DNA of 64,000 nt from assembly GCA_017461985.1 (NCBI GenBank), contig JAFTSA010000001.1:301-64300 (forward strand), given 5' to 3'. The number at the start of each line of letters is the position of its first letter. The first letter of the stretch is position 1. The notes beneath the pieces are model-generated. The model did not search any database, was not told where the DNA came from, and saw nothing but the letters and a program-made list of their open reading frames with translations. This document shows positions 9,471-59,575 of this stretch, piece by piece. Origin of the DNA: Clostridia bacterium (lineage in GTDB: Bacteria > Bacillota > Clostridia > Christensenellales > CAG-917). The position numbers were made by a program, and so were the translations under genes.

Positions 9471-10500
9471 ATGAGAGCAACATTGAAATTTTTGAGTGAA
9501 CAAAGTGGTTTGTCAATAGCTGCCATTTCTCTTATTCTCAATGACAAGCCTGTGCGAGTTTCGCCCGAAAAAAAGATTCTTGTCAAAAATTTGGCAAAAC
9601 AATACAACTATAAGCCAAATATGACGGCAGTTGCTTTGGTGACAAAAAAGACAAAGACGATTGGTTTGATTTTGCCAGACATAGTTAATCCGTTTTTTGC
9701 TGTTGTTGCAAGTGAAATTAATCAAAAATTTCACGAGGCAGGATACAACATTATTTTGTGCAACACCAACAACGACATCGATCTTGAGAATAAATATGCA
9801 GGTATGTTAGAAGAGAAGCAGCTTGAAGCGCTCATAATTTGTGCTTCAGACGAAAATCATCAATGCGACCTTAGTGGGTTCTATGATCAAAACATACCAG
9901 TCATTTTTTTTTGATAGATACTACGCAGATTCCAACTACATAGTGTCTATTGACAACACTGAAGGGGCGCGTCAGGCAGTCAAATATCTTATAGAAAATG
10001 GTCATCAAAACATAGCAATGATCACCGGCCCACTTAGTTATCGATCTGCAAGAACGCGTATTGATGGTTATAAGGAAGCCCTCGTAGAGGCGGGATTGCA
10101 GGTCAACGAAGACTATATCGTTGTAGGGGATTACACTTTCGACGGAGGCCAAAGGGCGGCGAAAATAATCGGCGAGTTTGATGAAGTGACTGCCGTGTTT
10201 GCAAGCAACGACCTTATGGCATACGGAGCAATGAAGGAATTTTCTGACAGCGGCAAAAATGTGCCAAATGATATTTCCATCGTCGGTTTTGACGATCTTA
10301 ATTTTTCACAAATGTTGCGCACACCCTTGACTTCTGTCAAACAAAATTTGAAAGAACTAGCAGAAAACGTTTTTGGTTTAACGATGCGCGCAATAAATGG
10401 TTACGTCGCGCCTACGCACAAGGTCGTTGCGACCAACCTGATAGAGCGTGACAGCGTAGTCAACCGAGAAAGCGTTCACAATATTTCAGCAGTTAAATAG
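9471..10500 (+). pseudogene. LacI-family transcriptional regulator interrupted by a +1 frameshift in a T9 homopolymer
   Basis: The N-terminal HTH (ATLKFLSEQSGLSIAAISLILND) and first sugar-binding lobe are in frame 3 (tracked ORF 9369..9914). The rest (DRYYADSNYIVSIDN..VGFDDLNFSQMLRTPLTSV) is in frame 1 (9841..10500). The switch is at T9, 9904-9912. Eight Ts would read PVIFFDRYY in one frame (~342 aa). Confidence 0.85.
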
Positions 10501-10547
10501 AATTGCAAACAGATCCGTTCAATAATTTGAGCGGATTTTTTTGGGTA

Positions 10548-10576
10548 TTGACAATGGTTTTGACTTGCAGTATAAT
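10548..10576 (+). promoter_or_regulatory. Consensus sigma-A promoter for the downstream transport/catabolic locus
   Basis: TTGACA (10548-10553), 17-nt spacer, TATAAT (10571-10576). Confidence 0.7.
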
Positions 10577-10648
10577 CAACGTGAGTAAAACCTTTTATCA
10601 ACGAGCAAACCTTTTTTGCGTAGGACGAAAAACTTATTTTTTTGGACT

Positions 10649-10664
10649 GGTAAAACGATTTATC
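10649..10664 (+). promoter_or_regulatory. Candidate LacI-family operator (CG-centred pseudo-palindrome)
   Basis: GGTAAAACGATTTATC. The half-sites match 6 of 8 positions around a central CG. It lies between the promoter and the TTG start at 10691. Confidence 0.4.
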
Positions 10665-10690
10665 AAACTTATAACAAGGGGGAGTCAAAA

Positions 10691-12154
10691 TTGAAAAAAT
10701 CTAAACTTTTCATTGCTACAATTGTTTTTGTTCTTTTGTTTTCGTTGACATTTGCACTTGTCGCTTGCGACGAAAAGGGCAACGATGAAGTGATAAACAA
10801 TGACAACGATACAACACCAGACGCACCACAATACACGGCTTCTGTCACTTATACGGGGAGTGGTTTGATTATCATGCCCGGCAAGGATAGACCCAGCTAT
10901 ACTGCGACTGTCCGTGGCGTTATCGTTGATGAAACAAGCGGGGAGCCCCTCATTTCACAATTGAAAATTTGGGATAAAGCAGAAAACTTGATTTATCGTA
11001 CGGTCACTGACTATCTTGGTAGATATGAACTTGTTCTCCCTGACGGTAGCTACGATATTGAATTTAGCCATGGTAGTGAATATGAAATTGAAGTGCTCCG
11101 TGATTACGTGGTGTACACAAACGGTTATTTTAAACTGCCCGACATTTCTTTGAAACGCCTGTATTCATTGCCCAACTGGTATGCAGGAGATCTCCACCAA
11201 CATAGTACGTACAGTGATGGAAAGGATTTGCCTAGCGAAGTCCTCAAATCAAATATTGCAGTGGGCATGTCATACGGAATTTTGTCAGACCACAACAGCG
11301 TCTATCAAGTGGTTGAGTGGCTTGCCGGAAACAGAATTTATATTGGTGAAGGCAGGAATTTCTTGGCAATTCAAGGCTGGGAAGTGACCACGTCCAGAGG
11401 ACACTATCAAGCAATCAATAGCAGAGAAATTTTCAATGCAACCGCATGGTCGGCAAGTGATATTTTGCGTATTGCCAATGATATTCGTCTGCAACCGAAT
11501 ACAATTGCTCAGATTAATCACCCCGGCCGTACCGATGATATGGGATTCATTGATTGGAATCTGGCAGGACGCTTTGACACTATTGAAGTGTGGAATGGCG
11601 TTTACGCTCCTCCTTATCTTAGTGGTACAAATAAGTCCAGTTATGAGAAATGGGTTGAACTTATGAACAAGGGAACAAGACTTGCAATCGTTGGCGGAAC
11701 GGATAACCACGGTGTCAACGGCACGCCTTATGCTCCTGATTCAAATGAACTCGAATGGATCAAGCGCAATACGTATTCCGGCTGTCCCAGAACCTACGTT
11801 TATACGGAAGACTATTCGTTGGATGGAGTCTTATCTGCGATTAAACAAGGAAACTCATTTATTACAAACGGGCCTTTGGTGTTTGCAAATCTCAACGGCA
11901 AGAGTTATGGCGAAACAGTAACGCTTGAAGAGAACATGCTTCTCAACTTTGACCTCAAGTCAAATGAAGCGTTGAAACAACTTAAGATTTATGTCAATGG
12001 CAAGCTTGTCAAGACAATAGACATTGCTGACGGAGCATTTACGTACGAAGGTACGCTTGAACTTGAAAACCTAAAATCTGGTGACTGGATTAACTTGCAA
12101 CTAAGTGGTGATTTTGCCGGATTTGCAGTGACCAACGCAATATTTATCGAATAA
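10691..12154 (+). CDS. Secreted lipoprotein with a CarboxypepD_reg-like domain and a PHP-type (CehA/McbA-like) metal-dependent phosphoesterase domain
   Basis: TTG start 6 nt after AAGGGGGAG. Lipobox FALVACDE. GRYELVLPDGSYDIEF is a beta-sandwich signature. PHP motifs GDLHQHSTYSDG, ILSDHNS, INHPGR and GGTDNHG. Confidence 0.75.
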   Translation: MKKSKLFIATIVFVLLFSLTFALVACDEKGNDEVINNDNDTTPDAPQYTASVTYTGSGLIIMPGKDRPSYTATVRGVIVDETSGEPLISQLKIWDKAENLIYRTVTDYLGRYELVLPDGSYDIEFSHGSEYEIEVLRDYVVYTNGYFKLPDISLKRLYSLPNWYAGDLHQHSTYSDGKDLPSEVLKSNIAVGMSYGILSDHNSVYQVVEWLAGNRIYIGEGRNFLAIQGWEVTTSRGHYQAINSREIFNATAWSASDILRIANDIRLQPNTIAQINHPGRTDDMGFIDWNLAGRFDTIEVWNGVYAPPYLSGTNKSSYEKWVELMNKGTRLAIVGGTDNHGVNGTPYAPDSNELEWIKRNTYSGCPRTYVYTEDYSLDGVLSAIKQGNSFITNGPLVFANLNGKSYGETVTLEENMLLNFDLKSNEALKQLKIYVNGKLVKTIDIADGAFTYEGTLELENLKSGDWINLQLSGDFAGFAVTNAIFIE

Positions 12155-21184: not shown

Positions 21185-21209
21185 TTTATTATCGCGAAAG
21201 CGAAATACA

Positions 21210-21308
21210 ACATATCCGATCTTGCTCACCTAAGGCGTGCTGGGCTATGGAGTGCAAGGCGTTAGGGTATGGCGGGAAACGGCCATGCCTCCCATTGTGG
21301 AAAGGAGA
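21210..21308 (+). promoter_or_regulatory. Probable Moco/Tuco (molybdenum/tungsten cofactor) riboswitch
   Basis: The ~120-nt leader contains TCCGA, GGGAAACGG, GCCTCCC (21287-21293) and GGAAAGGAG (21299-21307, also the RBS). These resemble the conserved blocks of the Moco RNA motif as I recall it. It sits upstream of a tungstate/molybdate transporter. Confidence 0.55.
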
Positions 21309-21311
21309 ACT

Positions 21312-22253
21312 ATGAAAAAATTTACAGCTTTTGCACTGGTGCTTTTGCTGGTGCTTTCACTCGTCACGTTTGTGGCTTGCGATCCCGAAACCCCCGACAC
21401 CCCCGATGCACCCAAAGTGGTGAGAATCTCCACAACAACCTCTGTCAACGACAGTGGTCTTATGGCATATCTCCAACCTTACTTTGAAGCACAAACCGGC
21501 TATAAGTGGGAGATTTCCTCAGCAGGCACAGGCGCAGCAATCAACTCTGCAAAATACGGCAACGCAGACGTCATTCTTGTCCACAGCAAGTCACAAGAAG
21601 AAGCATTTGTTTCAGCAGGATTTGGCAGAAAAGTTGAAGGATACGATGCAGAAAGAGTGTCCTTTATGTACAACTACTTTGTTCTTGTAGGACCCACCGC
21701 AGACCCCGCAGGTGCAAGTGATGCAGAAGGTGTCAAGGCAGCATTCAGCGCAATCGCAACCGGCGAACACACCTTTATCTCCCGTGGTGACAAGAGTGGT
21801 ACACACACCGCAGAATTGAAACTTTGGGACGCATCTCTCGGCCTCACCAACGACCCCGCAACAAGCGCAACCTATACTTGGTACGTTTCAGCAGGTCAAG
21901 GTATGGGCGCATGCCTCACCATGGCAAACGAACAAGGTGGCTACTGCCTCACCGACAAAGCAACGTTCCTCTCATACAAGAATCACGCAGACGGTGACAA
22001 ACTCCCCGGCCTTTCAATCCTCTTTGAACAAGACGATGCAATGAAGAACACCTACTCAATGATTGCAGTCAACCCCGACGCACCTTTTGTTGACTCAGTC
22101 ACAGGGGAAGCACTTCCTGCAGGCACTGTCACCATTGACACCACCGCAGCAGACGTCTTCATCAACTGGATGAATAGCGAAACCGCACGCACTCTCATTG
22201 CACAATACGGCATTGAACAATACGGAGCATCCCTCTTTACAGTCATTGAATAA
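21312..22253 (+). CDS. tupA: Tungstate-type ABC substrate-binding lipoprotein
   Basis: AAAGGAG RBS. Lipobox TFVACD. ISTTTSVNDSGL (TTTS motif) and SRGDKSGTH. Confidence 0.8.
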   Translation: MKKFTAFALVLLLVLSLVTFVACDPETPDTPDAPKVVRISTTTSVNDSGLMAYLQPYFEAQTGYKWEISSAGTGAAINSAKYGNADVILVHSKSQEEAFVSAGFGRKVEGYDAERVSFMYNYFVLVGPTADPAGASDAEGVKAAFSAIATGEHTFISRGDKSGTHTAELKLWDASLGLTNDPATSATYTWYVSAGQGMGACLTMANEQGGYCLTDKATFLSYKNHADGDKLPGLSILFEQDDAMKNTYSMIAVNPDAPFVDSVTGEALPAGTVTIDTTAADVFINWMNSETARTLIAQYGIEQYGASLFTVIE

Positions 22254-39933: not shown

Positions 39934-40189
39934 AAAAAACTCCTTTTCTTGATTATATCAAGGATTCATCACAAAATCAATTATAAAATAAGGAGGAAAA
40001 GGGGAGAAAACACAAAAATCAGCGGATTTTGTGGGGTTTCAACGCGCACGCACGCCCTCCCACGCCCTTGCGCAGTACGTCCGCGCATATAGGCACTTGT
40101 ATTTTTCATCACTATGTTGTAATATTATTTGTATCAATAGTGATTGGTTCCTTGAAAAATCTACCCAAAGCACAAAATATAAGTGGAAT

Positions 40190-44604: not shown

Positions 44605-45021
44605 ATGGCAACTAAGAAAGCAGCAGCAAAAAAGGTTCAATATCTCGGCACCGGCAGACGTAAGAAGGCAATCGCACGCGTTCGCCTTATCCCCGGTGAA
44701 GGCAATATCACAATCAACAAGAGAACATTCGAAGATTATTTCCCCGTTGACACAATGAGAATGATCGTCGAACAACCTCTCGTCCTCACCGCAACCAAAG
44801 ACAAGTTTGACGTCGTCGTCAACGTTTATGGTGGTGGCATGACCGGCCAAGCAGGCGCAATCCGTCACGGCATTGCAAGAGCACTCTGTGTTGCAGACAC
44901 CGAAGCATACAGAAGCGCACTTAAGAAAGCTGGCTATCTCACACGTGACCCCCGTGCAAAAGAACGTAAGAAATACGGTCTCCATAAAGCACGTAAGGCA
45001 CCTCAATTCTCAAAGCGTTAA
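44605..45021 (+). CDS. rpsI: 30S ribosomal protein S9
   Basis: [12 protein letters not shown].., [19 protein letters not shown] and C-terminal RKAPQFSKR. Confidence 0.95.
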
Positions 45022-45037
45022 TCGCAGCAAGACAATC

Positions 45038-45068
45038 AAAAAACTCCAACTTCGGTTGGAGTTTTTTT
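45038..45068 (+). terminator. Rho-independent terminator after rpsI
   Basis: actccaac-ttcg-gttggagt followed by T7. Confidence 0.85.
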
Positions 45069-45165
45069 GTGTCTTGCTTTATATATAATGAAAAATAAAA
45101 AACTAAAATTATAGAAATATAGTAAACGTGTGCGCGTGCTCACTCGCGCGTGCGCGACAAATATC

Positions 45166-45500
45166 AAAAATTTTGGGGCAGGGAAAGGAAAATCTGCACC
45201 TTGAAAAAGCAATTTTTGATGAAAACTTAAATATTTTTTGAGAGAATTATTGAAAAATTTTTAGGAAGAAAAAGTTTTTTCTAAGCTTAAAAATATTTTT
45301 TTTAGCCGAAGAAAAAAATTTTTTCAAGTTTGAAATCCTCAAAAAGCACACAAAAACAACAAAAAACAAAAATAAAAAAATTGATTTTTGTAAGGTTTTT
45401 AAGAGAAAAAACGGAAAATTTTTGCTGAAAAACCCGCTAAAAAAGTAAAAATTTTGGGCAAAATTCAGTGAATAAAATGCTTAAAAAACTCAATTTTTTA
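45166..45500. repeat. Degenerate array of palindromic A(4-8)/T(4-8) tracts at ~16-25 bp spacing
   Basis: Examples are caaaaattttgggg, gaaaaagcaatttttg, taaatattttttg, gaaaaatttttag, gaaaaagttttttc, taaaaatatttttttta, gaaaaaaattttttc, aaaaaaattgatttttg, ggaaaatttttgc, gtaaaaattttgggc and taaaaaactcaatttttta. AAAAATTTTGGG(G)CA occurs twice (45166 and 45447). Confidence 0.7.
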
Positions 45501-45894
45501 TGAATAAAAGAGGGCATTTGGTGTATGTAGGGGCGTATATGCACACAATATTCCGTATGTTATAAAATTATACGCATATTTATTCATTCATTCACTTTGC
45601 CAAATTAAAGTGATAAATTAAAAAATGGGCGCTTTTGGCAAAAAGTCATCTTTTCACACCGCTTGAATATATAAAGATATACGCATACACGCGCGAAGAG
45701 GGGAAGGGATGGATTAATTATGCAATTAAAATTGATAAAAAATTAATTTTTTGTTAAAAATCATTTGCCATATCGGCAGTGTGCGTTTATAATGTAGATA
45801 ATTTCATTTGAAATGGAGTAGTATACTCCTTTCAGTGAAATCCAAATTCAGTCCAATAAAAAAGGATAATATTTACTCTATGGAGGTAACAACA

Positions 45895-48519
45895 ATGAAG
45901 CAAAGAAAACTCATCGCTGTTGTAGCAATTGTTTTGGTTCTTGTTCTTTGCGCAAGCGTCTTCGTGGCATGTAATAAAGACGAAGATCCTCGCTACTTGG
46001 CAACAACAAAGACCTACAAGACCTACGCATCATCTTTCGCTACATCATGGAACGTCCTTGACTATGAAACATCTGACCAAGGTGACATGTTCTCATATTC
46101 ATCATCAGGCTTCTATGAATTCGACTATAAGTTTGACGAAAATGGTGACGTTGTTGATGGACAATTCACAATCGTGCCCGTTATGGCATCAGATTATCCC
46201 ACCGACATCACAGCAGAAATCGCAGCAGAACCCGACAACGATTATCTCTTTGACGAAGAAGACACTGGTTATGCATGGTACATCCCTGTCCGCAAAGGCA
46301 TGACATGGGACAATGGCGATCCTATCGAACTCGAAGACTGGATCTACTCCATGAAGGAACAACTTAACCCCTTGTTCATGAACTATCGTGCAGACAGCTA
46401 TTACAGCAGCAGTACAGTCATCCACAATGCAAAGAACTATCTCTACAGTGGCAAGACCATCATGGCAAGTGATGACGGCCTCATCGCCGCAATCAACGGT
46501 GGAGCAGACTTCTACTTCAGCCCCGCAGCATCCAACTATCTCTTTGGACCTTATGGCGGTCTCGCATCAAGCTACGGAATCCTTCCTACATTTGATTCTC
46601 TCTACAATGACTACTTTGTTGTGACCTATGAAGAACAAGCAGCAGCAGCATGGGAAGCAGGCGAAGACCTTGCAGACGGCGCTATCAAGAAGGCAGATTA
46701 CGACACCCTCGAAGCATTTACACAAGCATACGTTGACTACAAGTTCACCGGTGCAGGCGCATCACCACTGCGTGCAGCAATCAGTGAAGTCTACACAATC
46801 ATCGACACACTTACTCCCGTAGAAGAAGGCACAGCAGCAGGTTACTATCTCGTGACAGATGAACTTCTTGCAGCACTCGATGCAGTTTCACAAGGTTTCT
46901 TCGGCGGCAACTATGGTTGGGCAATGTGCAGCTACATCGGTCAATATCCTGAAACCACTTTTGATCAAGTTGGTCTTAGAACAATTGACGATGGCGAACG
47001 CTACGGCCTCATCCTCATCCTCGATGTTCCTTATGTTGACAATGGTTCACACTTCGTTTGGGCATATGACTTCGGCGGCAACTGGCTCGTCAAGCCCGAT
47101 GTCTATGAAGCATGCAAAGTTGCTCCCGCAGACGGAAGCGAACTCTGGACAAGCACATACGGCACATCAATCGAAACATCACCTTCATACGGCCCCTACA
47201 AACTCACCGCATATCAAACCGGTAAGTACTATGAATTCTCAAAGAACGATGCATGGTTTGGTTACAGCATCCCTGAACTTTCAGAAGGCTACTATGAAAC
47301 AGACAAGATCCAATGCTCATTGATGGAAGAATGGGACACCGCATGGATGGCATTCCAAAAGGGTGACCTCGCAGGCATCGGCATGGACGTTAAGATCGCA
47401 GACGAATACAAGACATCAGCACGTGCATACTTCACTCCTGATGACTATGTCAACACCGTCCAAATCCAAACATCAATCGCAGCAGAACCCGATGACGGCA
47501 TCGCAAAAGAAATCCTCCTCAACACCAAGTTCAGAAAGGCACTCTCACTTGCAATTGACCGTGTTGAATATGCAAAACAATGCACCACATCATCACTGGC
47601 AGGCTTTGGTATCTACAACAGCATGCACTACTATGATGTTGAAAACGGTGGCGTCTATCGTAACACCGACATCGCAAAACAAGTTATCTGTGACGTTTAT
47701 GCAGTTGATGTGAACGATTATGATTCACTTGATGATGCATATGCAGCAGTCGTCGGCTACGACCTCGCACTTGCAAAGCAACTCGTTGCTGAAGCAATCG
47801 CAGAAGAAATCGCAGCAGGCACAATCAAGGCAACTGATGTCCTCGACATCACTTACGGCTCATCAGTTGATAGTGAAGCAGCACGTCGTCCTTACAACTT
47901 CTTGAAGGCAGCATGGGAAAAGATCTTTGAAGGCACACAATTTGCAGGCACTGGCTTCGTCTTCAACTATGACGGAACACACGGTGACGCATATGCAAAC
48001 GACTTCAAGGCAGGCCAATACGAAGTCCTCTCAGCAGGTTGGTCCGGCGCAGCATGGGATCCTTTCTACTTCATGATGGCATACATCCACGATGATTACA
48101 GATACGCACAAGGTTGGGATCCTAGAACTGTCAAAGTCACAGTCACCCTCAACAACGTTGACCCTGAAACAGGCGAATGGCTTGGTGAAGGCAATGGCGA
48201 AACCGCATCATTCACAATGGATGCACTCACAATGTGGGAAGAACTTTACGAAGGCACATGGGCAGAAGGCGAATGCAACGTTGAAAACCGCCTCCTCATC
48301 CTCGGCGCACTCGAAAAGACAGTCCTTGAATCATACTGCTCAATCCCCGTTACATACAGCTTTGGTGCAGCACTCCGCAGCTATCAAATCGAAGCATTCA
48401 CCGACACATACAACACATTCATGGGTTGGGGCGGCATCAAGTACTACAGCTACAACTACAACGATGGCGACTGGGCAAGATACGTTGACAGCCAAAACGG
48501 TCAACTCAACTACAAATAA
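45895..48519 (+). CDS. Oversized family-5 (Opp/Dpp-type) ABC substrate-binding lipoprotein (~874 aa)
   Basis: GGAGG RBS. Lipobox VFVACNKDE. SBP_bac_5-like block YIPVRKGMTWDNGDPIELEDWIYSM and YYEFSKNDAWFGY. Very acidic, with strongly biased codons. Confidence 0.8.
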   Translation: MKQRKLIAVVAIVLVLVLCASVFVACNKDEDPRYLATTKTYKTYASSFATSWNVLDYETSDQGDMFSYSSSGFYEFDYKFDENGDVVDGQFTIVPVMASDYPTDITAEIAAEPDNDYLFDEEDTGYAWYIPVRKGMTWDNGDPIELEDWIYSMKEQLNPLFMNYRADSYYSSSTVIHNAKNYLYSGKTIMASDDGLIAAINGGADFYFSPAASNYLFGPYGGLASSYGILPTFDSLYNDYFVVTYEEQAAAAWEAGEDLADGAIKKADYDTLEAFTQAYVDYKFTGAGASPLRAAISEVYTIIDTLTPVEEGTAAGYYLVTDELLAALDAVSQGFFGGNYGWAMCSYIGQYPETTFDQVGLRTIDDGERYGLILILDVPYVDNGSHFVWAYDFGGNWLVKPDVYEACKVAPADGSELWTSTYGTSIETSPSYGPYKLTAYQTGKYYEFSKNDAWFGYSIPELSEGYYETDKIQCSLMEEWDTAWMAFQKGDLAGIGMDVKIADEYKTSARAYFTPDDYVNTVQIQTSIAAEPDDGIAKEILLNTKFRKALSLAIDRVEYAKQCTTSSLAGFGIYNSMHYYDVENGGVYRNTDIAKQVICDVYAVDVNDYDSLDDAYAAVVGYDLALAKQLVAEAIAEEIAAGTIKATDVLDITYGSSVDSEAARRPYNFLKAAWEKIFEGTQFAGTGFVFNYDGTHGDAYANDFKAGQYEVLSAGWSGAAWDPFYFMMAYIHDDYRYAQGWDPRTVKVTVTLNNVDPETGEWLGEGNGETASFTMDALTMWEELYEGTWAEGECNVENRLLILGALEKTVLESYCSIPVTYSFGAALRSYQIEAFTDTYNTFMGWGGIKYYSYNYNDGDWARYVDSQNGQLNYK

Positions 48520-58104: not shown

Positions 58105-58252
58105 ACGAAATTCAAAAGTAATTAAAATTATTTTTGGAAAAATTTTTCAGCGTTCTATTTGGCTAAAATTTTGATTTTGCTGTTTTTATAGTGTCAAAAT
58201 CACCCACACGTACGCACGTGCACGTCAATTTGTCATAGACAAATTTGAGAAA

Positions 58253-59575
58253 GTGGTTTATACTTACTATATGGCTTGCAAAATCGTGCTGAATGCACAA
58301 TATCTAAAAACAAACAAAATCGCACTTGCCCTGTCCGGGGGCAGAGATTCAATGGCGTTGGCTCATATCTTGAAAAGTATGGGCGCGCCTTTTTTTGCAG
58401 TCAATTTTGACCACGGAATCCGTGGGGCAGAGTCCAAAAAGGACAGCGAATTTGTATGTGACTGGTGTTTGAAAAATGGGATAGAGTGTGTCAGCATTGC
58501 CTTTGACACTCCTTCATACGCAAGAGAAAAGGGTATGACCATTGAGCAAGCGGGCAGAGAGTTGAGATATTTCCACCTTGACCGCCTTGTAGAAGAGGGA
58601 AAATGTGACCTTGTTGCCTTGGCTCACCACAAAGACGACCAAGCGGAAACCTTGATTATGCGTATCATCCGCGGCACAGGTGTCCGTGGGCTTAGAGGTA
58701 TGAGCGAGGTGAATGGTCATTACGTCCGTCCCCTTATCAATTACACCCGTGAAGACATCAACGAATACGTCAAGGAAAACGATATTCCTTACGTTGAGGA
58801 CAGCACCAACACCGACGACACATACACAAGAAACTTCATCCGCAAGGAAATGGCAGTGCTGAAAGAAAGATTCCCCTCTCTTGATGAATCCCTTGCGCGT
58901 CTTTCACGAAACGCCAGTGAAATTGACGACTATCTTCTCGGCAAAGTGGGTGAAATAGCGGTTGTTGACGGAGAGTGCAATATGCCCCTCACCGACCTAA
59001 ACACCCCTGCCGTAGCCAAAAGAAAAATACTCTGCATTTTTGAAAAGTTGGGAGTAAGACAAGACGTTGAAGAAAGACATTATCCTTTGATATTTGACCT
59101 TGCAAGTGCAGAAAACGGCAAGAAGTTGAGCCTTCCTCACGGCATTGAGGTGCACAAGGACGGAGAAAATCTTGTTTTCAGCGCTGTTGTAAACCCTAGC
59201 AATATTGACGAAATCCCCTTTGAAAAGAAGTCTGTTGAGGGCGTCATCACAGTCACTCCCACTGACAAACTTCAGTTTGAAGAGGGTGAACTCATAATTG
59301 ACCTTAATAAAATCCCAAAGACGGCGGTGCTTCGTCACCCTCGTGAAAAGGATAGAATCCACAAATTCGGTGGGGGAAGCAAGAGCCTAGGCGACTTTTT
59401 GACAGACAAAAAAGTGCCTTTGAGGAAAAGAGCAGACCTTGTTGTCTGCGCCTCTGCACCCAGTGGATATAAAAACTCAAACCAAGTGCTTTTTGTCCTA
59501 GGAGTGGAAATCTCCGCCGACGTGAAGGTTGAGGACGGAAGTGATATGGCAAAAATCTCAAAACCAAACAAATAA
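58253..59575 (+). CDS. tilS: tRNA(Ile)-lysidine synthetase
   Basis: PP-loop ALSGGRDSMAL, followed by hpt as in Bacillus. The start is either GTG 58253 or ATG 58271. Confidence 0.85.
   Translation: MVYTYYMACKIVLNAQYLKTNKIALALSGGRDSMALAHILKSMGAPFFAVNFDHGIRGAESKKDSEFVCDWCLKNGIECVSIAFDTPSYAREKGMTIEQAGRELRYFHLDRLVEEGKCDLVALAHHKDDQAETLIMRIIRGTGVRGLRGMSEVNGHYVRPLINYTREDINEYVKENDIPYVEDSTNTDDTYTRNFIRKEMAVLKERFPSLDESLARLSRNASEIDDYLLGKVGEIAVVDGECNMPLTDLNTPAVAKRKILCIFEKLGVRQDVEERHYPLIFDLASAENGKKLSLPHGIEVHKDGENLVFSAVVNPSNIDEIPFEKKSVEGVITVTPTDKLQFEEGELIIDLNKIPKTAVLRHPREKDRIHKFGGGSKSLGDFLTDKKVPLRKRADLVVCASAPSGYKNSNQVLFVLGVEISADVKVEDGSDMAKISKPNK

Follow-up and report, generated by a model that had tools for sequence, protein, structure and literature searches.

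The 64,000-nucleotide stretch of DNA analysed here (hereafter the window) belongs to an uncultured gut Clostridia bacterium, for which the nearest RpsI record is that of a metagenome-assembled genome from sheep colon (98% identity); the next relatives, at 82-86% identity, are labelled Clostridia, Clostridiales or Christensenella. Between rplM-rpsI and a large solute-binding protein gene (SBP_bac_5) lies a spacer of 873 bp (45022-45894) with 29% G+C, and this spacer harbours several runs in which purines and pyrimidines alternate without interruption (RY runs). The initial annotation had listed five of them, had pointed to others near 40.04 and 58.2 kb, and had considered them a non-random cluster in non-coding DNA upstream of plus-strand genes. 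An exhaustive rescan recovered the coordinates and sequences of the five runs exactly, and the further runs were also found, with lengths of 14 and 21 nt (Table 1). The distribution of these tracts, their evolution and their possible meaning are considered below.

Across the window 43 RY runs of at least 10 nt were counted, and the five that reach 14 nt or more all lie between genes. The expectation was taken from a first-order Markov model fitted to intergenic and to coding DNA separately. For the intergenic portion of 4.7 kb the expectation is 0.11 runs of 14 nt or longer, and five were observed, a number which none of 400 simulations reached, together with six runs of at least 12 nt (0.56 expected) and two of at least 19 nt (0.00 expected). 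The 59.3 kb of coding DNA contain four runs of at least 12 nt where 11.3 were expected and none of at least 14 nt where 2.7 were expected. The non-random character of the tracts is thus confirmed, and so is their confinement to non-coding DNA in the window, no run of comparable length being present in its genes.

The same kind of expectation was applied to a lineage comparison set of 80 rpsI loci and a number of loci added later, all of them from metagenome assemblies, for which the gene maps are crude open reading frame maps and promoters were called by matching to the consensus. Intergenic runs of 13 nt or more are 12-fold enriched in this genus (8 observed, 0.68 expected) and 5-fold in the relatives at 82-86% RpsI identity (8 observed, 1.5 expected), whereas other Clostridia (2 against 2.2) and all remaining groups (2 against 3.5) are close to or below expectation; in coding DNA the counts are close to expectation in every group. 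The enrichment is therefore lineage-specific. Among the binary patterns compared in the 26.5 kb of intergenic DNA covered for this lineage, RY alternation is the most enriched (18 observed, 2.4 expected), followed by homopurine runs (6 against 1.8) and keto/amino (K/M) alternation (4 against 1.2), and strong/weak (S/W) alternation is absent (0 against 0.4). Simple sequence is thus mildly enriched in general in the intergenic DNA of the lineage, and RY alternation stands out. Two congeners carry RY runs inside a phosphoglucomutase-family gene, CACACGCACACGCACATATGCA of 22 nt in L113 (17873-17894) and CACACGCACACGCAC of 15 nt in L120 (17935-17949), so the coding DNA of some congeners tolerates such runs.

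Table 1. Alternating tracts of the window, the segments calculated to be most prone to left-handed DNA, and neighbouring genes and signals
Feature	Position	Strand	Description
GC-rich island at 40 kb	40042-40091		RY runs 40042-40055 (14 nt) and 40082-40091 (10 nt), between divergent promoter-like sites
Promoter-like site beside the island	39980 to 39952	-	TTGATT-17-TATAAT
Weaker promoter candidate beside the island	from 40097	+	TTGTAT-17-TAATAT, read from sequence
Z-prone segment	40042-40055		critical superhelical density -0.038
rpsI	44605-45021		end of rplM-rpsI, 5' of the spacer
rplM-rpsI intrinsic terminator	45038-45067	+	perfect 13-bp palindromic stem between an A run and a T run
Site 1	45126-45156		two RY arms (45126-45139 and 45145-45156) around TCACT
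RY run	45126-45139		ACGTGTGCGCGTGC (14 nt)
RY run	45145-45156		CGCGCGTGCGCG (12 nt)
Z-prone segment	45127-45156		critical superhelical density -0.036, top of the window
RY run	45533-45547		GCGTATATGCACACA (15 nt); alternates only in the window and L006, partly in L005
RY run	45569-45579		TATACGCATAT (11 nt)
Repeated box	copy 1 45561-45578; copy 2 45670-45687		TATAAA-N2-ATACGCATA, 18 nt, copies 89% identical
RY run	45677-45695		ATATACGCATACACGCGCG (19 nt); the -35 box of the SBP_bac_5 promoter follows 69 nt downstream of its end
Z-prone segment	45682-45695		critical superhelical density -0.041
Promoter-like site of the SBP_bac_5 operon	45765-45793	+	TTGCCA-17-TATAAT, 11/12 consensus; conserved leader of about 100 nt follows
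SBP_bac_5 solute-binding gene, large	ATG at 45895		3' of the spacer; ABC-transporter permease genes next
Promoter-like site back-to-back with the tilS promoter	58197 to 58168	-	tract lies between both
RY tract upstream of tilS	58205-58225		CACACGTACGCACGTGCACGT (21 nt), tandem GCACGT unit; ends 10 nt upstream of the tilS -35 box
Z-prone segment	58206-58225		critical superhelical density -0.038
tilS promoter	58236-58264	+	TAGACA-17-TATACT, 10/12; ATG at 58271
Best coding segment			critical superhelical density -0.042

The spacer was aligned with those of ten same-species contigs having an identical RpsI and of one sister species (L011). The tracts are retained in relatives: four of the five runs are present in all ten same-species strains, the 40-kb island in nine strains and the tilS tract in six of seven genomes. 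They do not, as had been proposed, form one homogeneous cluster, since two of the runs are arms of a single element, one is strain-specific and one is a piece of a repeated box. Nor do they share a sequence motif beyond the alternation itself, the heptamer GCGCGTG being absent from about 100 kb of congeneric loci which still carry tracts. The description of their placement as upstream of plus-strand genes is oversimplified: across the lineage tracts lie directly 5' of -35 boxes, between divergent promoters, shortly past terminators or in 5' leaders.

The runs 45126-45139 and 45145-45156 are the two arms, of G/T/C type, of one conserved element with a short non-alternating centre (site 1). It starts 59 nt downstream of the rpsI terminator and was found in every same-species strain without a 330-bp insertion. 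The direct repeat of GCGCGTGC which had been noted here is present in the window (45132 and 45146, 14 nt apart), but in other strains the second copy reads GCGTGTGC or GCGCGCAT, so what is conserved at site 1 is the alternation with its G/C richness and not the exact repeat. The element can also be read as a 10-nt direct repeat (CGTGTGCGCG and CGCGTGCGCG, 20 nt apart) or, alternatively, as an imperfect palindrome rich in G·T. Its diversity reaches 0.21, with 16 transition columns and 3 transversion columns, and the right arm measures 16, 17 or 18 nt according to the strain. Moreover, two of the three large strain indels of the spacer adjoin site 1, an instability which is expected of DNA prone to non-B structures. 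In L002 (3475-3790) and L005 (3475-3840) the left arm is replaced by some 330 bp of inserted GC-rich DNA, without an Rfam match, directly 3' of the rpsI terminator. In three strains only (L009, 3553-3651, and the equivalents in L002 and L005) about 100 bp of AT-rich DNA adjoin site 1; this segment is flanked by alternating inverted repeats of 10-12 nt (ACGCGCGTGTGC and GCACGCGCGCGT) and holds a second, inverted copy of the site 1 sequence.

The 19-nt tract at 45677 has the same length and alternates in all ten strains, and its four variable columns are all transitions. Its core CGCATACACGCGC is retained in the sister species, in which both flanks have diverged. The 5' part of this tract falls within the second copy of the 18-nt directly repeated box; the first copy contains the 11-nt run 45569-45579, which is unchanged in all strains and in L011 and which alone, being short and AT-rich, is within chance. 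Copy 1 of the box may tentatively be seen as overlapping an extended -10 element (TGtTATAAA, 45558-45566), and the sole listing of the promoter scan at this place is a 9/12 match at 45540-45568. The remaining run, 45533-45547, reads GGATATACAGCCA or CAATATACCCCT in the other strains and in L011, and three of its four variable columns are transversions; it is strain-specific and probably incidental. No CodY box (AATTTTCWGAAAATT, up to 3 mismatches) was found in the spacer, the window as a whole having 4 matches where 6.8 were expected. By eye, and not with a tool, parts of the spacer were also considered as NrdR box, ARG box, sigma-E or sigma-K sites and set aside as poor matches. At 40 kb, where the island separates two divergent promoter-like sites, nine strains could be compared: the ten variable columns comprise nine transitions and one transversion, and most columns of the flanks do not vary.

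The tract at 58.2 kb allows a comparison between species. Seven genomes (the window, L110, L113, L116, L117, L119 and L120), with TilS proteins 69-97% identical to that of the window, have kept the tilS promoter T[AG]GACA-17-TATACT. The ATG follows the -10 box by 6-7 nt in all seven, which suggests that the predicted tilS mRNA is leaderless. A palindrome overlaps the -35 box (TTGTCATAGACAA in the window). An RY tract of 13-21 nt ends 9-20 nt upstream of the -35 box in six of the seven genomes (the window, L110, L113, L117, L119 and L120), and all six sequences differ: CACACGTACGCACGTGCACGT in the window, and CACGTACGCACGTGCATGC, TACACGTATGCGTGCGTATA, TACACGTGTGCGCGCA, TATATACGCACGC and TGCGCGTGCGCATA. 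The safest statement that these alignments seem to permit is that alternation and G/C richness persist upstream of tilS and the sequence does not.

The substitutions and the composition of the tracts are both unlike those of their surroundings. Nearly all changes of the tracts in relatives are transitions or indels of 2 nt. Within the species, site 1 and the 45677 tract together show 20 transition and 3 transversion columns, whereas at the four-fold degenerate sites of GH31, rplM and rpsI of the same strains the ratio is 47:44 (Fisher p = 0.002); with the 40-kb island included the tract ratio becomes 29:4 (p = 0.0003). The pyrimidine-purine (YR) steps of the five long tracts are CG in 20 cases, CA/TG in 13 and TA in 4, although the surroundings have 29-33% G+C, and the G+C content of the tracts is 59%, which exceeds both that of four-fold sites (44%) and that of intergenic DNA (33%). 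Since 59% G+C is found despite apparently saturated transitions, G/C appears to be held in the tracts by something. The ease of the transition from the right-handed B form to the left-handed Z form falls in the order CG > CA/TG > TA (PMC3024258, Table 1). The YR steps of the tracts follow this same order, which is the opposite of what the AT-rich surroundings would seed. As far as the alignments can tell, the maintained property of the tracts is their alternation, with its G/C richness, and not their base sequence.

The propensity to form Z-DNA was calculated with the B-Z energies of PMC3024258 (Table 1) and 5 kcal/mol for each junction, as a single-run approximation in which competing transitions are ignored. 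The four most Z-prone segments of the window are intergenic tracts (Table 1). Moreover, with uninterrupted alternation over 12-21 nt and richness in CG or CA/TG they exceed the run of at least about 8-12 bp that characterizes Z-DNA-forming sequences. A Z-DNA potential of the tracts is thus physically plausible according to this model.

These properties lead us to propose, tentatively and with considerable doubt, that the tracts are DNA elements of the Z-DNA-prone kind which act through their structure and respond to torsional stress. Alternation of CG, CA/TG and TA steps is what the B-to-Z transition requires of a sequence, and it also makes a sequence self-complementary. The tracts lie in AT-rich DNA directly 5' of -35 boxes, in the interval of divergent promoters and shortly past a strong terminator, which are the places where the negative supercoiling made by transcription is strongest. 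Once transcription nearby brought the superhelical stress beyond about -0.04, a tract would flip to, or towards, a left-handed or other non-B form and absorb about 3-6 superhelical turns, and would in this way shield the neighbouring promoter and the highly AT-rich spacer from torsional stress, as a buffer or insulator. This readiness to adopt other structures probably also drives the fast evolution of the tracts, by slippage of 2, 4 or 6 nt and by template switching. That such a structure forms in the cell and influences transcription is what we infer from these features. An ordinary operator is a poor fit, because there are no fixed positions and the diversity lies inside the site with the flanks conserved. 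An RNA helix is not needed, because pairing in even registers is automatic, compensatory changes are zero and hairpins do not require alternation. A more ambitious version, in which the ability to undergo a B-Z or another alternation-dependent transition is preserved by natural selection upstream of promoters and between operons and is possibly read by a lineage-specific protein binding left-handed or alternating DNA, appears quite improbable to us.

Several observations weigh against an element acting through its structure. The steady-state unconstrained superhelical density of Escherichia coli is usually quoted as about -0.025 to -0.03, and the value of about -0.04 calculated for the tracts is more negative than this, so they would flip only under transcription-driven stress. 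The 520 bp between site 1 and the 45677 tract, with 20-25% G+C, may melt first; in E. coli denaturation dominates at 37 C (PMC3343103, section 20). The diversity of site 1 (0.21) is above the synonymous diversity (0.089). In the comparison of L113 with L119 the flanks of the tilS tract are nearly identical, and of the 20 positions of the tract 11 differ, 10 through transitions. This is about 4 times the transition frequency of the four-fold sites of the same pair (11.5% transitions and 23.7% transversions; transition excess p = 2.5e-5); the transversion deficit (p = 0.03), by contrast, speaks for retained alternation. The count is not independent evidence because two tracts alternating in phase can differ by transitions alone, and the apparent saturation is ambiguous because 2-nt slippage would mimic it. 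High transition rates and high diversity point to a mutational process, and a constraint on alternation alone predicts neither. In addition, L116 has the same tilS promoter without a tract, and transversions gather at the tract edges (in L119, TATATACGCACGC-T-CGCACA; in L120, the 5' part), so the element is dispensable. L113 carries long RY runs within genes. Finally, the positions vary across the lineage, from upstream of -35 boxes to 5' leaders (L012, L017/L018 and L113) and to places just past stop codons (L035), with no single promoter-relative rule.

The strongest rival explanation, which we consider possible although somewhat unlikely, is that the tracts are a neutral by-product of mutation, namely compound microsatellites of the type (CG/CA·TG/TA)n that arise through even-unit slippage and template switching and have no function. 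Such tracts would be tolerated outside genes only, because indels of 2 nt shift the reading frame. Tandem units can be recognized in the tilS tract (GCACGT twice, 58214-58225), in the right arm of site 1 (CGCGCG/TGCGCG, 45145-45156) and in the 45677 tract (ATACGC/ATACAC, 45679-45690), and the 2-nt length steps of the right arm (16, 17 and 18 nt), the bounding of large indels by alternating tracts, the diversity above that of synonymous sites and the 4-fold excess of transitions all have a natural place in this account. Each even-unit slippage and each transition would also keep the alternation automatically, but transversions are under-represented in comparison with four-fold sites. Moreover, (TA)n and A/T seeds far outnumber CG seeds at 29-33% G+C, yet the tracts are dominated by CG and reach 59% G+C. 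Other simple patterns are also enriched in intergenic DNA, but only about 3-fold where RY alternation is enriched 7-fold. The heterogeneous positions and the tract-less L116 with its unchanged promoter agree with neutrality, whereas the persistence of the promoter-proximal tract in six of seven genomes with about 35% divergence at synonymous sites does not. This explanation is compatible with the structural one, as proneness to non-B forms raises mutability.

It is also conceivable, although we regard it as unlikely, that the tracts are transition-tolerant sites of a protein (a transcription factor, a nucleoid protein or a type II topoisomerase) which recognizes YR-step flexibility or a loose core such as CGCGTG-N4-CACGCG or ACACGT. 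The core of site 1 contains a 16-bp near-palindrome, CGCGTG-NTCR-CRCGCG, in six of seven haplotypes and partly in L011. The three copies of GCGCGTG in the 64 kb all lie in this spacer, two direct and one inverted, and the heptamer is biased to intergenic DNA in L011, L017 and L018, but it is absent from the loci L110-L113, L116, L117, L119 and L120, where tracts are nevertheless present. GCGCACGC, counted together with its complement, has three intergenic occurrences and no coding one. The tilS tracts lie at about -45 to -70, which is a usual position of an activator site or UP-element, and ACACGT is common to the window, L113 and L117; the six tilS tracts nevertheless show no position-specific conservation, the window and L113 agreeing at 12 of 20 positions, which is about chance for alternation in phase. 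The lineage specificity of the tracts would suit a lineage-specific protein, but their distance from the promoter and their orientation vary, and high diversity inside a site whose flanks are conserved is the reverse of a normal operator.

Two fixed words were considered as candidates and rejected. Exact copies of the 10-mer GCGCGTGCGC are intergenic in L017, L018 and L035, occur also in coding DNA of GC-richer genomes and are absent in congeners. GCGCGTG, for its part, is the lactococcal/streptococcal Chi heptamer, and a Chi role here was discarded: its 3 copies compare with about 4.6 expected from base composition, and they are confined to one spacer, intergenic, and in the orientations + + -. 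In four distant loci of Candidatus Scatosoma and other Clostridia (L036, L041, L012 and L034) the heptamer has 6-8 copies per 20 kb, nearly all on the rpsI strand (7+/1-, 6+/0-, 5+/0-), a frequency and strand bias that resemble a Chi signature.

A role of the tracts as sense-strand RNA hairpins, such as 5' or 3' stabilisers, secondary terminators or leaders in which G·U pairs are tolerated, would concern mainly site 1 and the 5'-leader tracts of relatives, and we judge it improbable. The predicted fold of site 1 is stronger on the plus strand (-18 to -24 kcal/mol) than on the minus strand (-9 to -16 kcal/mol) in six of seven haplotypes, L007 being equal (-21), but this asymmetry is equally explained by the direct repeat. 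Pairing reaches 97.6% in each of two registers that are shifted by 2 nt, and 87-92% in those further out, so it is independent of the register; it is automatic for arms alternating G with pyrimidines, and the same-species strains contain no compensatory double change. L011 retains a GC-rich hairpin at the place of site 1 despite its broken alternation, but alternation is unnecessary for hairpins. In L017/L018 a 12-bp hairpin with a GUAA or GCAA loop lies in the 5' leader of a surface-protein/solute-binding protein operon, with a like difference between the strands (-15.3 kcal/mol against -1.9 and -3.7 kcal/mol), and in L113 the 5' leader contains UGCACA-UACG-UGUGCG; in contrast, the tracts at 40042, 45677 and 58205, all located 5' of promoter-like sites and of CA type on the sense strand, fold weakly. 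As regards termination, the terminator-like UUUAUUCU follows site 1 in L009-type strains, whereas in the window ACAAAUAUC follows and the terminator scan made no call at site 1; weak minus-strand terminator calls were obtained at 45694-45681 and 58222-58205. Site 1 lies after a strong terminator without a convincing promoter upstream, and neither an Rfam covariance-model match nor covariation was found for it. For site 1 and for L017/L018 an RNA role stays conceivable in view of the plus-strand G·U asymmetry.

Ends of mobile or invertible elements (terminal inverted repeats of miniature transposons, a family related to repetitive extragenic palindromic (REP/REPIN) sequences, or recombinase sites) are very unlikely: there are a perfect 9-bp inverted repeat around 535 bp (TCGCGCGTG, 45144-45152, and CACGCGCGA, 45688-45696), the extra segment of about 100 bp by site 1 in L009, L002 and L005 with its inverted repeats of 10-12 nt, and, in L017, TGCGCGTG and CACGCGCA flanking 122 bp just past rpsI, but the eleven homologous spacers are all collinear with no inverted orientation, the main promoter lies outside the repeat pair, the copies are few with no common consensus and without GCGCGTG in about 100 kb of congeners, and CG-rich alternating tracts are mutually complementary almost by construction. 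An invertible promoter (inverton) was rejected for the spacer, which has the inverted repeats but with eleven collinear arrangements and with the 11/12 promoter outside them.

The other features of the spacer are more conventional. The rplM-rpsI terminator does not vary across the same-species strains and scores on both strands because its stem is flanked by an A run and a T run; weak matches to small RNA families of Rfam on the minus strand (45027-45147) are driven by this stem. The AT-rich body (45157-45520) consists of A5-8/T5-8 blocks and contains a 15-nt motif, AATTTTTGMTGAAAA, three times (45211, 45417 and 45492), as well as several further degenerate direct and inverted repeats of 20-37 nt. 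No tRNA and no Rfam match at gathering score was found in the spacer, with merely chance-level matches at E up to 5, and in the window and four related loci nothing relevant to the tracts reached the gathering score. Among the spacer open reading frames of at least 20 aa that were listed no conserved small one was evident, their conservation not having been tested. From 45713 to 45894 the strains are nearly invariant (diversity 0.009). This region includes the 5' leader of the SBP_bac_5 gene (45796-45894, about 100 nt), which has nearly no variation in ten strains and the sister species and has a hairpin at about 45801-45841 (whole-leader minimum free energy -20.1 kcal/mol, z = -1.9); the leader has no Rfam family match, and a metagenome scan with a 21-nt piece of it gave two unrelated chance matches and nothing else. 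The SBP_bac_5 protein itself (45895-48519 in the window) ranges from 824 to 966 aa among strains L001-L010, all with identical RpsI, which suggests a rapidly diversifying surface lipoprotein.

In a related genus, L018 carries a tandem duplication of about 200 bp, rich in G, T and C, directly 3' of the rpsI terminator (10480-10800), and insertions appear to be concentrated behind rpsI throughout the lineage. Elsewhere in the window a Moco (molybdenum/tungsten cofactor) riboswitch aptamer was identified at 21203-21323 on the plus strand (68 bits, gathering score 36), upstream of a gene starting near 21330. With regard to short words, CGCG occurs 72 times in the coding DNA of the window against 162 expected from base composition and 13 times in intergenic DNA against 3.7. 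Many other 4-bp palindromes stand at about half their expectation (GATC 0.42, GGCC 0.49, CATG 0.50, CCGG 0.51 and CTAG 0.52), a deficit that hints at past restriction-modification pressure. Decay driven by CpG methylation was rejected as the sole cause, the CpG odds ratio being 0.96, GCGC not being depleted, and CGCG being low in coding and high in intergenic DNA. If CGCG or GCGC sites did carry 5-methylcytosine, the B-Z threshold would be lowered.

The function of Z-DNA-prone sequences in bacteria is a long-standing question. If selection did maintain a capacity for the transition, as in the more ambitious version above, the tracts would constitute a sequence-independent, supercoiling-responsive layer of gene control and the first comparative-genomic evidence for functional elements of the Z-DNA type in bacteria. 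The survival of alternation through the replacement of the sequence at an orthologous promoter is the kind of signature expected if structure matters and sequence does not. Should they prove to be genome-wide, the tracts upstream of the tilS, SBP and DUF885 genes would offer testable natural elements, with a tract-less relative as control. If instead they are neutral products of slippage, they document a lineage-specific mutational regime which shapes intergenic DNA.

Among known systems, Z-prone promoter tracts are the closest comparison. The idea that Z-prone motifs near promoters serve as torsional buffers is established, with little direct evidence in bacteria (PMC13463272), and such tracts have been modelled (PMC3024258, PMC3343103). 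The tracts described here share with such elements RY runs of 12-21 nt, richness in CG and CA/TG, a calculated onset at about -0.04, a position where transcription-driven negative supercoiling accumulates, and indels nearby. They differ from them in the 5- to 12-fold intergenic enrichment in one lineage, whereas RY patterns are generally suppressed in prokaryotes (PMC4060949) and Z-prone sites of E. coli are under-represented in the 250 bp that precede genes (PMC3343103, section 20), and in the retention of alternation across species while the sequence turns over. Dinucleotide and compound microsatellites and contingency repeats resemble the tracts in their even-unit duplications, 2-nt polymorphism, fast turnover and non-coding location, but the tracts are impure, short (6-10 dinucleotides), rich in G/C relative to both the local and the mutational background, and situated outside promoter spacers and reading frames in which a change of length could turn a gene on or off. 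With the REP/REPIN sequences of Proteobacteria they have in common that site 1 is a GC-rich, imperfect, intergenic palindrome just past a highly expressed operon, with an inverted doublet around about 90 bp in some strains; unlike these, the tracts have neither a high-copy family nor a consensus, their core heptamer is absent in congeners and alternation is not a property of REP sequences. REP/REPIN was rejected on the grounds that only about four loci in 64 kb are present and share no feature other than alternation. The tracts match neither a known RNA family nor a REP-like one, and a role as an invertible switch or as Chi does not fit them either. What sets this lineage apart, as read from the genomes compared, is the combination of an intergenic enrichment with a conservation that extends to alternation only, which is the reverse of what the surveys of prokaryotes and of E. 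coli have described.

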